In this document: piece by piece, positions 2,579-54,808 of the stretch
How positions within the stretch are numbered: position 1 is the stretch's first letter
How the letters are laid out: each line of letters begins with the position of its first letter
DNA from: Escherichia phage Turkey3
Direction: 5' to 3' (one strand)
DNA length: 64,000 nucleotides
Sequence record: PQ471515.1
Program-made: the position numbers and the translations under genes
Notes under the pieces: model-generated
Database searches by the model: none
Told to the model about the DNA's origin: nothing
Seen by the model: only the letters and a program-made list of their open reading frames with translations

Positions 2579-3054
2579 AGTTCAGTTTAGATGCAGCCTT
2601 TAAATTTGTTCACAAAATAGAAACAATATATCGTACATTATGTGCAATAACATCAGTATCAAAAGAGTTTGATGTTGGTGAAAGGTATCAGGTGTGGAAT
2701 AATTCATTTTATAATAAAGAACATTCTGCGACGGCATTTTATATTTTAGCATTTAATCCCAGCAATTGTTACCCAGAGAAGCATGAACGTTATCCAAATG
2801 ACGACATGTGGTTTGAGTACAAAGAAGATGCTGATATGTCGTCAATTGTAGTTCCTGATGATTTTAATGCACAAGATTTAACAGAAGAGTGGTGGTTCCA
2901 GCAGAATTTAGTACATGATGATATTGATTTATTTTTCTATATTGCATTTAAAATGCTTTATCACAACAATATAGTTAAAGAAAGTTTATCGTTTTCATGT
3001 CTATATATTGATGATTTGTACAATGAAATTCAAATAAACATGCCTGTATCGTAA
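2557..3054 (+). CDS. FQ-S array paralog
   Basis: 165 aa; motif TEEWWFQQNLV. Confidence 0.55.
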   Translation: MHRMSDLEFSLDAAFKFVHKIETIYRTLCAITSVSKEFDVGERYQVWNNSFYNKEHSATAFYILAFNPSNCYPEKHERYPNDDMWFEYKEDADMSSIVVPDDFNAQDLTEEWWFQQNLVHDDIDLFFYIAFKMLYHNNIVKESLSFSCLYIDDLYNEIQINMPVS

Positions 3055-3072
3055 GATATGGGCTTTTTTTGT

Positions 3073-3101
3073 TTGACACGAGTACAAATGCATGGTACAA
3101 T
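3073..3101 (+). promoter_or_regulatory. sigma70-like promoter (TTGACA-17-TACAAT)
   Basis: TTGACA at 3073-3078, 17-nt spacer, TACAAT at 3096-3101, just upstream of RBS/ATG of 3092 gene region. Confidence 0.5.
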
Positions 3102-3703
3102 GTGTAATCATTTTTAAGGAGATACCTATGGAAAATTTTAAAATACCAGATGATTTCAATTCAGTACAAGAGATTGTACACAAGGTTCATTATATTTTTA
3201 ATGAATTAATTATTGCCAATTCATCCGGTATGCAAATTGAGTTAAAGGATATTGATAGAGAAGAAGTTTTTTTGGGTTCCCCAAATTCAATCATTCCTTT
3301 TTATGGACAAGATCGTTTATGGTTCATGAGAGATACCCCAATTGACAAATACAAAATACAAAACAAATCAGAGTTTTATTATATTTTTGATTGTCTTAAT
3401 ATTACATTACAAACACAAGATATAAATGCAATGAGTGCCATGAGTGCAGAGGATTATTTTCAGTACAGTACAGTGTATAGTCCAGAAGAAATCTTTGTTG
3501 TTATGCTCGTTGCAAAATTGAGTACAGTTAATTTTGGGACGTACCCAAATAAATCATTCAAGATTATTATTCCTGCATTCGTTGATCTTTATGATTTCAT
3601 TGTGCACAAGAAAGAAAGTACAGTGTACGATATGTATCGTTCAAATATCAGTTTATTTGCATCAAGTGCAGTAAATGCAGTGATTACAGGGGAATTAAAA
3701 TGA
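3092..3703 (+). CDS. FQ-S array paralog
   Basis: 203 aa; motif SAEDYFQYSTVYSPEE. Confidence 0.6.
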   Translation: MVQCVIIFKEIPMENFKIPDDFNSVQEIVHKVHYIFNELIIANSSGMQIELKDIDREEVFLGSPNSIIPFYGQDRLWFMRDTPIDKYKIQNKSEFYYIFDCLNITLQTQDINAMSAMSAEDYFQYSTVYSPEEIFVVMLVAKLSTVNFGTYPNKSFKIIIPAFVDLYDFIVHKKESTVYDMYRSNISLFASSAVNAVITGELK

Positions 3704-4308
3704 ACATAGACCAATTAATGAAGTACAGTACAAATACAATTCCAGTGCTAAGTAAAGCATTAGATGCATTCAATGCTAAGTACCCTGAAGGTTCCGAGTT
3801 AAATATTCCTTTTACCACAGAAGGGATTGTTGATACGTACATTGTAAACATCAGTAGTACAGGTATTGTTTTGAAGCAAAAGTACGGCGAAAGTGAATAT
3901 TATGGATTGAAGCTGGATAATATTTCAGGAGAGAAGACACCTTATGAGTTTTGGGTTCCGAATAACATTGAGTCATGGAAAACAAATATTAATAAGAGAG
4001 ACGAAAGAAATTTACCTCTTGTACAAAATAATGAAAAAAGAATTGACGTATTTTATTATTACAGTACAGCCCAGTTTCCAGAAGAGATTTATTTAAATTC
4101 AGAGGTGCATGAAGATATTGAATCATTTTTCTTTCAGTTATCATTGGTACAGGATATCATGCCTGTGCAAATGTTCAGGGATGAAATAAATTTAGCGAAA
4201 GAGATTTCGGATATGTTACCTGAATTTAGTGTTCTTTATGGTAGTAGAGCTTTACCTGAAAATGTATACAAAGAATTTATTTCCATTGTTAAAGGGTTGA
4301 ATATATAA
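3700..4308 (+). CDS. FQ-S array paralog
   Basis: 202 aa; motif ESFFFQLSLVQD; ATGA overlap with upstream gene. Confidence 0.6.
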   Translation: MNIDQLMKYSTNTIPVLSKALDAFNAKYPEGSELNIPFTTEGIVDTYIVNISSTGIVLKQKYGESEYYGLKLDNISGEKTPYEFWVPNNIESWKTNINKRDERNLPLVQNNEKRIDVFYYYSTAQFPEEIYLNSEVHEDIESFFFQLSLVQDIMPVQMFRDEINLAKEISDMLPEFSVLYGSRALPENVYKEFISIVKGLNI

Positions 4309-4309
4309 T

Positions 4310-4504
4310 ATGACCGCCTATGATATCAAACAAAGGCATACGAAGTTTGATTTGTTCACATACCAATTCCACAATGATATAGTGAATTTTAACATCAATG
4401 CGTCCTTGCATCCTACATCACAAGATGATTTTGACAACAGAGTGCTTAACATCGTGGTGCTTTTGTGTTATAATCATTTCAGTGAATATTTTAACGCCAA
4501 ATGA
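4310..4504 (+). CDS. hypothetical small protein
   Basis: 64-aa ORF starting 2 nt after previous stop. Confidence 0.4.
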   Translation: MTAYDIKQRHTKFDLFTYQFHNDIVNFNINASLHPTSQDDFDNRVLNIVVLLCYNHFSEYFNAK

Positions 4505-4520
4505 GGCAGATGAGGCACAC

Positions 4521-5039
4521 ATGTATCAGGCCAAGTACAATACATCATATGAGTATGGGCACAACATTTTGAAGATCATCAAAGCGTTAGAGGGTGGATT
4601 GCTTAGTCATAAGTACACCAGAGTAGGTGACAATTGGTTCAGAAATGATGATGAGTTCAGAAGTCATAAGATTGTTTACAGCAATAATTACAGTGCCAAT
4701 TACCTTCAGGATGTTGCTATGTGCTTCGAATACGTGTTACAGTTCAGGGGTTCCATCAGTCCTGAGCTAAGAGAACACATGTACATTCGATACCTACCAA
4801 TGCTTAAGGATGAGAAAACAATATTCAATTCAGTACATCAAAGAGTACGAGAGAGATCATTCAGGGATATTTTAGAAGATGAAGCTGCCTATTTTCAGCA
4901 ATCATTGATTGATGCTCCTGATGTGTTACAGATGCAGAATTTGTATAATGTATTAGATGCGAACATCGATACGGATATCTTTTTTTCCTTAAGTGATTAT
5001 GAAACATTTTTGGAAGATTTAAAGGAAATAGGATTATGA
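4521..5039 (+). CDS. FQ-S array paralog
   Basis: in-frame ATG at 4521 preceded by GAGG; motif EDEAAYFQQSLIDAPD; track ORF begins earlier at 4398. Confidence 0.5.
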   Translation: MYQAKYNTSYEYGHNILKIIKALEGGLLSHKYTRVGDNWFRNDDEFRSHKIVYSNNYSANYLQDVAMCFEYVLQFRGSISPELREHMYIRYLPMLKDEKTIFNSVHQRVRERSFRDILEDEAAYFQQSLIDAPDVLQMQNLYNVLDANIDTDIFFSLSDYETFLEDLKEIGL

Positions 5040-5380
5040 GTAGATTTTCAGTTTATATAGTAAACGTCAGTAAAGATGGTAGTTTAATTGAATTTGATGT
5101 AGTTGATGACAATGATAATTCATATTGTATTAAGGTACAGGACAATGATGTACAGTTCAGTACAAGGACAAATTTTGAGAATCCAGTCCAAGTTCCGAAT
5201 TTCATAGAAGATGAAGCTGCACGATTCCAATACGAAACGGCCTTTGATAATTTAGCGATGCATATTATTATGCAACAGAGTTTAGTTCAATTGCTTCAGG
5301 TATTCAGACAAAATATATATGTACATGAAGTGTCGATTAATGGTATTCAAAGTTCCGTTTTGTTCGGTACAAATATGTAA
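5036..5380 (+). CDS. FQ-S array paralog
   Basis: 114 aa; motif EDEAARFQYETAFDN. Confidence 0.55.
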   Translation: MSRFSVYIVNVSKDGSLIEFDVVDDNDNSYCIKVQDNDVQFSTRTNFENPVQVPNFIEDEAARFQYETAFDNLAMHIIMQQSLVQLLQVFRQNIYVHEVSINGIQSSVLFGTNM

Positions 5381-53660: not shown

Positions 53661-53917
53661 CTTTCTTGATTTTAGGTATTCCATTTGCAGTTGTGATCCT
53701 TGTACTTTTAGTGATGATGGTATTAAATGATAATACTACTCCACCAGTGATGCGTAATCATGAAGTACGATTTTCAGCACAAAACAACAAGTACTACATT
53801 GTAAATTGTTTAACTTGTAAAGAGTATAAAGTAACTGGTAAATTTGGTTTTACCATTTATTATAAAGACCGTGTTGAAGCTGACATGATTTGTCAGAAAC
53901 TTAATACGGTAGAATAA
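53657..53917 (+). CDS. small membrane-anchored protein
   Basis: TTG start overlapping TGA; N-terminal hydrophobic helix. Confidence 0.4.
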   Translation: MTFLILGIPFAVVILVLLVMMVLNDNTTPPVMRNHEVRFSAQNNKYYIVNCLTCKEYKVTGKFGFTIYYKDRVEADMICQKLNTVE

Positions 53918-53923
53918 AAAAAA

Positions 53924-53950
53924 GGAGCCTTATGGCTCCTTTTTCTTTTG
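53924..53950 (+). terminator. rho-independent terminator
   Basis: GGAGCC-TTAT-GGCTCC hairpin then TTTTTCTTTT. Confidence 0.7.
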
Positions 53951-54034
53951 TTAGTACACAACTTGTTTGAATTTCAGGAAAACTCTTAGATCCAACAACG
54001 AGTTCAGTACTACCACGTTATTTGTTGACAAAAG

Positions 54035-54064
54035 CATAGACATTATACATTAGTGTGATATAAT
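54035..54064 (+). promoter_or_regulatory. candidate promoter (TAGACATTA ... GTGTGATATAAT)
   Basis: GACAT-type -35 plus extended -10. Confidence 0.35.
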
Positions 54065-54132
54065 CATTCAAAAGAAGGTAAAAAGGTGGGATGATTCTGC
54101 GAGGGAATTTGTGAAGTGATATAAAAAACAAT

Positions 54133-54159
54133 TTGACTTAAGTTAAATCTTCCTATAAT
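54133..54159 (+). promoter_or_regulatory. candidate promoter (TTGACT-15-TATAAT)
   Basis: short spacer lowers confidence. Confidence 0.3.
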
Positions 54160-54199
54160 ATTATTTATGTAATCAACAATCAACTAAGAGGGTTAACCA

Positions 54200-54808
54200 G
54201 TGGTACGATTATGTAAAGAAATCATCCAATCTATTATTATTATTTTCTTAATTAACTTTCCTGCAAGTGCAGGTGTTGAAAGAAAAAGTATCATTAGATA
54301 TGATGAATCTAAACAGACAGTTCAGTTCATTTCAACTTTAACTGAAAATACTGTAAACCGTTTGATGGTTTTTAGAGAAACACACCCATTTGACACTATC
54401 ATCATTACGTCACCTGGTGGTGATTTTGATGCGGGAGTGGCACTAGGAAATTTTGTCAATGATAACAATTTAACAATTATTGTTGAAAGATATTGTAATT
54501 CTTCTTGCACTATCGCATTCTTTAGTGCTAATATAGAAAACAGATACATGATGAAGGACTCAATTCTAGGTCTACATAATGTGTCAATCGAAAGTAAAGC
54601 ACGAAATAGTGATGACACATACATAACAGTTCGCCAAATGACTATTTTTGCAGAACAGCTATCAACTAAGGTTGGTGTTCTATTTGCGTTATATGCAGCG
54701 AATGGTATTCCTCCAGAATTGTTAGTGGAGGTTAGTAAGGTTCGTGGTAATGAAGTTGTGAGACTTACACCAGAGCAGTTGCTCGAATTAGGTAGTATCA
54801 TTCATTAG
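54200..54808 (+). CDS. signal-peptide-bearing ClpP/S49-like serine peptidase (tentative)
   Basis: GTG start after AGAGGG; hydrophobic N-terminus ending ASA-G; ITSPGGDFDAG resembles ClpP SPGG motif. Confidence 0.5.
   Translation: MVRLCKEIIQSIIIIFLINFPASAGVERKSIIRYDESKQTVQFISTLTENTVNRLMVFRETHPFDTIIITSPGGDFDAGVALGNFVNDNNLTIIVERYCNSSCTIAFFSANIENRYMMKDSILGLHNVSIESKARNSDDTYITVRQMTIFAEQLSTKVGVLFALYAANGIPPELLVEVSKVRGNEVVRLTPEQLLELGSIIH

Follow-up and report, generated by a model that had tools for sequence, protein, structure and literature searches.

The window analysed here, a 64,000-nt stretch of Escherichia phage Turkey3 (sequence record PQ471515.1) taken at its full length, was assigned by megablast to the Asteriusvirus jumbo coliphages, where it represents the left arm of the genome. 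Identity is 98% with EC.P1, vB_Ec-M-J and fEgEco12 and ~84-86% with PBECO4, 121Q and phAPEC6. On the genome of fEgEco12, the physical ends of which are known (374,733 bp, with direct terminal repeats of 20,993 bp; PMC13070987), the window corresponds to about 30-94 kb, adjoining the left terminal repeat on its right. Nearly all window genes lie on the + strand, at a G+C content of 31-38% (genome, 33%). The subject of this work is the set of promoter-like sites between these genes, most of which belong to a class, here termed class B, that joins an extended -10 element to a GRGACA-type box. Asteriusvirus and other RaK2-like jumbo phages are under development for therapy, and their transcription programme is undescribed in the searchable literature.

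Two promoter classes in the window and across fEgEco12

The original prediction had placed nine extended -10 promoters in the window, and all nine coordinates contain the sequences described. It missed an intergenic site at 59426-59453 and look-alikes within open reading frames (ORFs) at 26373-26400, 45075-45103 and 57170-57197. TATAAT is exact at 9/9 listed sites and at the site ending at 59453. The extended element reads GTGATATAAT at the -10 ends 15170, 35960, 42880, 50537 and 54064, ATGATATAAT at 29873 and 59453, GCGATATAAT at 28160, GTGTTATAAT at 19050 and CGTGTATAAT at 30469. Its TG is found in 8/10 intergenic sites (the nine listed and 59426-59453); at 28160 the window has CG where fEgEco12 has TG, and at 30469 the TG abuts TATAAT with zero spacer base. 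The -35 hexamer is canonical at 15141 and 19022, whereas class B sites match GACA only, with a conserved G/R replacing TT. The spacer is 16 nt at each xRGACA site and 17-18 nt at the TTGACA, TTTACA and TTGAAT sites. All sites are co-directional with the genes, and at most of them the -10 ends 31-35 nt before a start codon. The intergenic promoters of the window are as follows.

3073-3101, + strand: candidate canonical promoter, TTGACA-17-TACAAT with TGn; directly 3' of a terminator-like hairpin (3042-3070); not in the earlier list
15141-15170, + strand: promoter with canonical -35, TTGACA, 18-nt spacer, GTGATATAAT; next gene at 15204; fully conserved in 121Q
19022-19050, + strand: canonical-type promoter, TTTACA-17-TATAAT, GTGT extended -10; next gene at 19078; conserved in 121Q (-10 TATACT)
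28133-28160, + strand: class B, TGGACA-N16-TATAAT, CG at the extended -10; next gene at 28194; box and -10 kept in 121Q and A4, spacer diverged
29846-29873, + strand: class B, GAGACA-N16-TATAAT with ATGA; starts where the upstream gene has its stop codon; precedes a structured RNA; kept in 121Q
30441-30469, + strand: listed site, TTGAAT-17-TATAAT, doubtful; -10 not conserved in 121Q and A4
35933-35960, + strand: class B, GGGACA-N16-TATAAT with GTGA; next gene at 35992/36001 (PHROG 16105); conserved in 121Q and A4 with spacer changes
42853-42880, + strand: class B, GAGACA-N16-TATAAT with GTGA; next gene at 42912; conserved in 121Q with box GAGACG
50510-50537, + strand: class B, TAGACA-N16-TATAAT with GTGA; next gene, at 50572, encodes a ClpP-like protease
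54037-54064, + strand: class B, TAGACA-N16-TATAAT with GTGA; 136 nt 5' of a protease-like gene at 54200; also in fEgEco12, region rearranged in 121Q and A4
59426-59453, + strand: class B, GGGACA-N16-TATAAT with ATGA; next gene at 59484; conserved in 121Q

Canonical sigma70 promoters are a minority of this set (15141, 19022 and probably 3073), and class B is the majority (28133, 29846, 35933, 42853, 50510, 54037 and 59426).

A generic sigma70 consensus scan of positions 1-20000 returned 120 sites compared with 123 in shuffles, so the informative signal is the specific composite motif. In the window, TGATATAAT occurs 12 times (3.3 expected), 11/12 on the + strand, and TGnTATAAT occurs 19 times (8.9 expected). 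The 8-mer most enriched in intergenic DNA is GATATAAT. For GACA-N16-TATAAT the enrichment is about 15-fold, with eight occurrences, 8/8 on the + strand, compared with 0.53 expected.

To describe the two classes genome-wide, promoters were scanned in the whole fEgEco12 genome, assembled from nine pieces, and the classes were contrasted at + strand nnGAC-N16-18-TATAAT sites. The extended TG is carried by 24/30 sites with non-TT boxes (class B, assigned in part by our own definition of a purine as second base) and by 12/49 sites with TT boxes (class A; Fisher p = 1.8e-6). A 16-nt spacer is likewise present in 26/30 class B sites compared with 24/49 class A sites (Fisher p = 7.5e-4). The dinucleotide preceding GACA is either TT or a purine-rich pair, and no C-containing pair is found. 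A logo of 26 class B sites reads G(18/26) R G A C A(21/26), 12 uninformative positions and G(18) T(22) G(26) A/C TATAAT, which gives the consensus (G)RGACA-N12-GTG(A/C)TATAAT with a fixed 16-nt spacer at ~26 sites in the genome. When sites were selected by box and TG alone, the next hexamer was TATAAT in 22 and TACAAT in 2, and otherwise noise. Class A consists of an A-tract and TTGAC(A/T), often with ...CAGTACTGTATAAT. The classes also occupy different territory: class A sites cluster in the terminal repeat, with 13, and at 270-330 kb, with 24, and class B lies at 50-145, 190-250 and 280-320 kb.

These counts bear on a conserved GACATA extension that the original prediction had read as a possible sign of an additional regulator. 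GACATA is present in 3/8 window sites, and the two positions 3' of GACA carry ~0 bits over the 26 class B sites, so that the extension itself falls away. The idea of an additional regulator holds in spirit, with the signal moved to other nucleotides, namely the G/R 5' of GACA and not the TA 3' of it.

In the terminal repeat of fEgEco12 (1-21 kb, L003) and at ~315-327 kb (L008), early-type promoters are fused to terminator-like hairpins, e.g. AAAGGGATTGACTccggTCAGTCCCTTTGCTATTAT. In this unit, repeated many times between very small genes, the -35 element lies in the 5' arm of the hairpin and T's follow.

Conservation was assessed in the orthologous regions of 121Q and of phage A4, a more divergent Asteriusvirus with window-region matches of 80-89% identity. 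Eight of the nine listed sites are conserved in 121Q and/or A4, with box and -10 kept while spacers and flanks diverge. At 50510, 121Q has unrelated upstream DNA and nevertheless TGGACA-N16-GTGATATAAT; at 29846, A4 has an AGGACA box and a different spacer followed by GTGATATAAT. The box thus turns over within class B at both sites, and at 59426, A4 has switched to TTGACA...TGCTATAAT. Retention of box and -10 amid diverged spacers is the pattern expected of functional promoters. The site at 30441-30469 was rejected as a conserved promoter, its -10 being destroyed in both 121Q and A4.

In the window, class B sites precede small genes of unknown function and two ClpP-like proteases. Elsewhere in fEgEco12 they precede a nudix gene and the genes for the sliding clamp, gp32 (two tandem sites), primase, an exonuclease and a helicase. 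A further class B -10 at 191010-191015 precedes the gene for the gp55-like late sigma factor. There, the ORF as annotated matches the PHROG "sigma factor for late transcription" only from residue 36 onwards, which places the true start about 60 nt after the -10. The probable start of this ORF (g336, L005:45974-46912) is accordingly ~35 codons downstream of the annotated one. The class B motif thereby corrects the fEgEco12 annotation, both at the late sigma gene start and at spurious ORFs over the RNA genes described below.

A multi-copy structured RNA behind class B promoters

The 600 nt that follow the promoter at 29846 hold no convincing ORF. Two features were delineated there.

29878-29909, + strand: hairpin GGTGACA..TGTCACC followed by T7; starts 5 nt after the -10 of 29846
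29944-30416, + strand: conserved core of a ~500-nt structured RNA element, one of four paralogous copies, each behind a class B promoter

Between Asteriusvirus subgroups, the 600 nt show 95-97% identity, compared with ~84% for the genes, and they match distant jumbo phages at 68-76%. The element (about 29874-30420) is present at 4-5 copies per record in 61 RaK2-like jumbo phage records (271 places). The four copies in fEgEco12 lie at about 59.8 kb (L001:30847-31388), 110.6 kb (L004 ~15630-16200), 195.7 kb (L006:723-1238) and 307.1 kb (L008:12112-12607), and a class B promoter precedes 4/4. A scan of IMG/VR with a conserved 28-nt pattern added 19 loci (L018-L036). TGnTA(T/C)AAT stands upstream of 21/22 distinct copies, together with the lineage's own box (GAGACA/GGGACA, TGGAACA/TGAAACA or TGGATCG). 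This linkage independently supports the promoter function of class B.

A consensus structure of 19 copies computed with RNAalifold has 77 pairs in 15 helices, 43 of the pairs with compensatory double changes. Pairing is possible in 97.4% of cells compared with 41-46% when partners are slid by 1-3 columns, and the covariation score is 0.433 compared with 0.05-0.08 for slid partners; 0/500 shuffles reach the observed values. Several G-U pairs are invariant, which identifies the structured strand as the promoter sense and the element as RNA. Rfam over the window gave no match at gathering thresholds and, at E <= 5, only a chance DapZ match on the terminator hairpin; no tRNA or tmRNA was found. 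The PA5oct region with the RNA-seq-defined ncRNA001 and ncRNA002 has no similarity to the element by nhmmer, and PA5oct expression data are thus not transferable to it. In the consulted papers on CBB and PA5oct, no link of a divergent promoter to a multi-copy structured RNA was found.

The ~500-nt RNA is a candidate for a new large structured RNA family. A strongly covarying multi-copy RNA of this size, in no RNA family database, may outweigh the promoters in importance. As ideas only, and by analogy, its role could be that of a regulatory or scaffold RNA, or of an origin-primer RNA comparable to the T4 middle-promoter origins or to ColE1 RNA II. The T4 origins oriF and oriG use middle promoters. 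As for the hairpin at 29878-29909, it probably terminates upstream transcription, and transcripts from the promoter at 29846 would lack its full 5' arm; the same promoter-then-hairpin arrangement, with a different sequence, is present in A4. In the fEgEco12 annotation, minus-strand mini-ORFs g340-g342 (L006 ~980-1650) overlie the third RNA copy, and g160, g256 and g257 overlie other copies; these ORFs are likely annotation errors.

The upstream box and its candidate reader

Searchable literature on promoters or transcriptomes of Asteriusvirus and RaK2-like enterobacterial phages is confined to an in silico analysis of CBB and RNA-seq of PA5oct. In CBB, 18 canonical RpoD-like promoters with UP-like elements were predicted in a small-gene region that includes the phage sigma gene, and 18 "divergent" promoters (TGAAACG ... 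TGnTATAAT), also recognized in GAP32, for the most part preceding the gp55-like sigma gene and genes of DNA synthesis; ATAAATA was predicted before structural genes (PMC5259590). To relate these to class B, the gp32 neighbourhoods of RaK2 and CBB were compared with fEgEco12, and the following boxes were found, each followed after 13 nt by TGnTATAAT.

gp32 promoters: fEgEco12 GCGAGACA and TTGGGACG; CBB AATGAAACG and TGTGAAACG, also in tandem; RaK2 ATCTGAACA
RNase H promoter: fEgEco12 TCTGGGAAA; CBB AATGAAACT; RaK2 TTTGAACGA
Primase promoter: fEgEco12 GGTGAGACA; CBB AATGGAATG; RaK2, none found in the gp32 neighbourhood

At orthologous gp32, RNase H, primase and exonuclease promoters, Asteriusvirus thus has GRGACA, CBB ATGAAACG and RaK2 CTGAACA, with TGnTATAAT common to all, and the Asteriusvirus variant (T/C)G(A/G)GACA stands in the same register as the other two boxes. 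By these comparisons, the -10 is constant across lineages, and the box varies from lineage to lineage but is tightly conserved inside each one. The canonical early class, in contrast, keeps TTGAC in Asteriusvirus and CBB alike. Class B is the Asteriusvirus version of a RaK2-like promoter class with a TGRRACR box, 13 nt and TGnTATAAT. It shares with the CBB/GAP32 divergent promoters the clade, the TGnTATAAT element, a box other than TTGACA that is set 13 nt upstream of the TG, the orthologous genes served (gp32, in tandem in CBB and fEgEco12, RNase H, primase, exonuclease and the gp55-like sigma) and a basis in in silico prediction only; it differs in the box, which is GAAACG/GGAATG in CBB and GRGACA in Asteriusvirus. 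The CBB-type pattern TGRAAC-N17-TATAAT has only 2 matches in fEgEco12, and the class is therefore present there in the variant and not the CBB form. The class was already noticed in silico in CBB and GAP32, and what is new here is the Asteriusvirus box variant; class B is undescribed for Asteriusvirus in the searchable literature.

A candidate reader of the box is the RpoD-like sigma factor that is characteristic of group 2 jumbo phages, for which no promoter specificity is reported in the searchable literature. Its gene is present by tblastn in all Asteriusvirus records, including Ecwhy_1 at 99.7% identity; the reported lack of a sigma gene in Ecwhy_1 (PMC13070987) is not borne out. In fEgEco12 the gene (g519) has class A sites upstream of it and lies in the right arm, which is rich in that class. 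The protein has Pfam sigma regions 2 and 3 and aligns with group 1/2 sigma factors in the PDB. When it was aligned with the C-terminal part of E. coli sigma70, region 4.2 was found to contain an 8-residue insertion. In the recognition helix, the equivalent of R584 is kept (K in CBB), and those of E585, R586, R588 and Q589 are changed. The sigma factors of fEgEco12 and 121Q, which have the same box, have the helix core RSS(L/I)HRKYSEAM in common despite only 59% overall identity, whereas the helix differs in RaK2 (RGTLHYKFSTAL) and CBB (KATLSRRYNDMM), where the boxes differ. This co-variation of helix and box across lineages is suggestive of a phage sigma that reads the box. The 59% identity between the fEgEco12 and 121Q/PBECO4 groups (L008:11080-12048 compared with L014:301-1263) contrasts with ~84-86% for window DNA, and the sigma gene therefore appears to be subject to fast evolution or exchange. 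A second annotation, "putative sigma 54" (g276), corresponds to a ribosome hibernation factor domain in Pfam.

Class B is placed as a middle tier by its co-location with replication genes, the late sigma gene and the structured RNAs, and in fEgEco12 ATAAATA stands 25-45 nt before the start codons of structural genes. Three promoter classes, together with one host and two phage sigma factors, fit an early-middle-late cascade, and a testable three-tier map follows: canonical early promoters, the GRGACA/extended -10 class and ATAAATA late promoters. In the proposed mechanism, the invariant extended -10 would be engaged by a sigma70-type region 2/3, and the -35-like box would be read by a phage-encoded factor made from the canonical early promoters. 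Dependence on that factor would make class B sites delayed-early/middle promoters. The box is lineage-specific and, to our knowledge, region 4.2 of sigma70 is essentially invariant in Enterobacterales, which argues for a phage-encoded reader. On these comparisons, the requirement for a phage-encoded specificity factor, with class B acting after the canonical early promoters, is given an even chance. The first-choice factor, the RpoD-like sigma with its remodelled region 4.2, is proposed tentatively, and the second choice, a MotA/AsiA-like appropriator acting on host sigma70, is considered rather unlikely. Equally tentative is the fuller model, in which class B would be the regulon of the phage sigma, its region 4.2 co-evolving with the lineage box, and the ~500-nt RNA would be among the main products, either as a new non-coding RNA family or as an origin primer/R-loop RNA.

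Several points weigh against the proposed explanation. The equivalents of W433/W434 and H455/E458 (E. coli numbering) are not kept in the phage sigma, which fits badly with a -10/TG identical to that of sigma70. With this perfect -10/TG and with GACA matching 4/6 of the -35 consensus, E. coli holoenzyme alone should be able to use class B in vitro. The site at 15141 combines a canonical TTGACA with the class-B-type GTGATATAAT, and the class assignment is partly definitional, as noted above. A tblastn search of fEgEco12 with T4 AsiA gave no hit better than E = 2, a weak test confined to AsiA. Finally, the invariance of host region 4.2 enters the argument as general background, and the searchable papers yielded no data on transcription start sites, timing or factor dependence in any Asteriusvirus.

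One rival, a real though minority possibility, is that these are plain host sigma70 extended -10 promoters, immediate on DNA entry, with xRGACA as a weak -35 and no phage factor. The original prediction had described the sites as host sigma70-dependent early promoters; the promoter part of that description stands, and the host and early parts are made doubtful by the separate canonical class, which is concentrated in the obvious early regions (terminal repeat and right arm), the placement before replication genes and the lineage-specific box. For host sigma70 alone speak the exact sigma70 extended -10, TGnTATAAT, which with a perfect TATAAT demands little of the -35, and the 4/6 match of GACA to TTGACA at an allowed 16-nt spacer. 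The window also adjoins the left terminal repeat and is rich in small genes of unknown function, as is typical of an early region, and the phage itself encodes no RNA polymerase; reliance on the host enzyme is reported for group 2 jumbo phages (PMC7824862). Known E. coli extended -10 sigma70 promoters, like class B, have TGnTATAAT and, at 16-18 nt, a -35-like hexamer, and they depend on the host core polymerase. They differ in that class B selects G/R where sigma70 prefers TT, holds an invariant 16-nt spacer and has a box that is lineage-specific across phages of related hosts. Host sigma70 alone leaves unexplained the selection for G and purine instead of TT, the split between TT and purine-rich pairs to the exclusion of C-containing ones before GACA, the fixed spacer in a territory apart from the canonical class, and the lineage boxes GAAACG, TGAACA and GGAACA, which match 2-4/6 of TTGACA although the hosts are all Enterobacterales. 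The position of class B before replication genes and the late sigma gene also counts against it.

In sigma appropriation, which is judged unlikely, host sigma70 would be retained while a phage activator/co-activator binds the box and remodels region 4, and the RpoD-like sigma would serve otherwise. The perfect -10/TG suits host sigma70 better than a phage sigma without the W-dyad and H455/E458 equivalents, and the architecture resembles that of T4 middle promoters, in which a sigma70-type -10 with TGn is joined to a non-sigma70 box replacing the -35. As in T4, where the -10 often has TGn, a phage-specific box takes the place of the -35, genes for replication and for late-transcription factors are served, and the promoters would occupy the second of three tiers of a cascade. 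The T4 MotA box, however, is (a/t)(a/t)(a/t)TGCTTtA centred near -30, whereas the class B logo is GRGACA at -35..-30, in the position of a -35 hexamer and with an uninformative spacer. T4 also has no full-length RpoD-like sigma, and this phage encodes one. No candidate activator was identified: the above-described AsiA search was negative, within its limits, and the "transcriptional regulator" annotations that were examined (g185, g307 and g390) have no Pfam match. For the RpoD-like sigma as reader, the SPO1 cascade (host sigmaA early, gp28 middle, gp33/34 late) offers an analogy only: a phage sigma produced from host-type early promoters in or near the terminal repeat would redirect host core polymerase to a second class. 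SPO1 middle promoters, in contrast to class B with its perfect host consensus, have a -10 unlike the host's. That the motif is a functionless artefact of AT-rich intergenic DNA or of a copied ancestral segment is very improbable. The low G+C content of the genome and the lack of excess in the generic scan would be consistent with such an origin, whereas the composite motif shows strong enrichment and a + strand location throughout, different sites have unrelated spacers and flanks, and the motifs persist through divergence or replacement of the DNA around them, which refutes this reading.

Terminators, sites within genes and a GTAC-core palindrome

The remaining features of the window are terminator-like hairpins and class-B-like sites within ORFs.

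18989-19013, + strand: intrinsic terminator-like hairpin with T-run; directly 5' of the promoter at 19022; conserved in 121Q
53919-53949, + strand: intrinsic terminator-like hairpin; upstream of the promoter at 54037
26373-26400, + strand: class-B-like site within an ORF, TGGACG-N16-TATAAT with TGA; present in 121Q and A4; possible internal promoter
45075-45103, + strand: class-B-like site within a Ser/Thr phosphatase gene, GGGACA-N17-TATAAT with TGA; possible internal promoter
57170-57197, + strand: class-B-like site within an ORF, GGGACA-N16-TATAAT without TG; 90 nt before the end of a NUDIX gene; possible internal promoter

Terminator-like hairpins with T-runs lie just 5' of the promoters at 3073, 19022 and 54037. 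Because some promoters directly follow terminators (18989 to 19022, 53919 to 54037), the promoters do punctuate the + strand array; the remaining ones, which have no upstream terminator, would add internal starts to long transcripts. The reading of the sites as promoters in the original prediction is supported by co-directionality, by the spacing to start codons and by conservation, except at the non-conserved 30441-30469, and the subdivision of the array is supported by the terminators that precede some of the sites. In the first 28 kb, which hold arrays of genes of 110-200 aa, only three candidate promoters are found. The three sites within ORFs, two of which have GGGACAAAATC in common, are kept in 121Q and A4; with coding and promoter constraints inseparable in this setting, they are possible internal promoters.

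An excess of a GTAC-core palindrome was also observed. In the window, CAGTAC, the top hexamer, occurs 143 times compared with 10 expected, AGTACT 194 times compared with 21.5, and CAGTACTG 42 times compared with ~6 under a third-order Markov model. The excess is a feature of the DNA, with occurrences in each of the three reading frames and on either strand. AGTACT is in 5-9-fold excess across the clade (fEgEco12, 121Q, A4, RaK2, CBB, and GAP32-like and Yen9-04-like loci) and its excess is absent from PA5oct. Many terminator stems contain the palindrome as well, and so does the spacer of canonical early promoters (CAGTACTGTATAAT).

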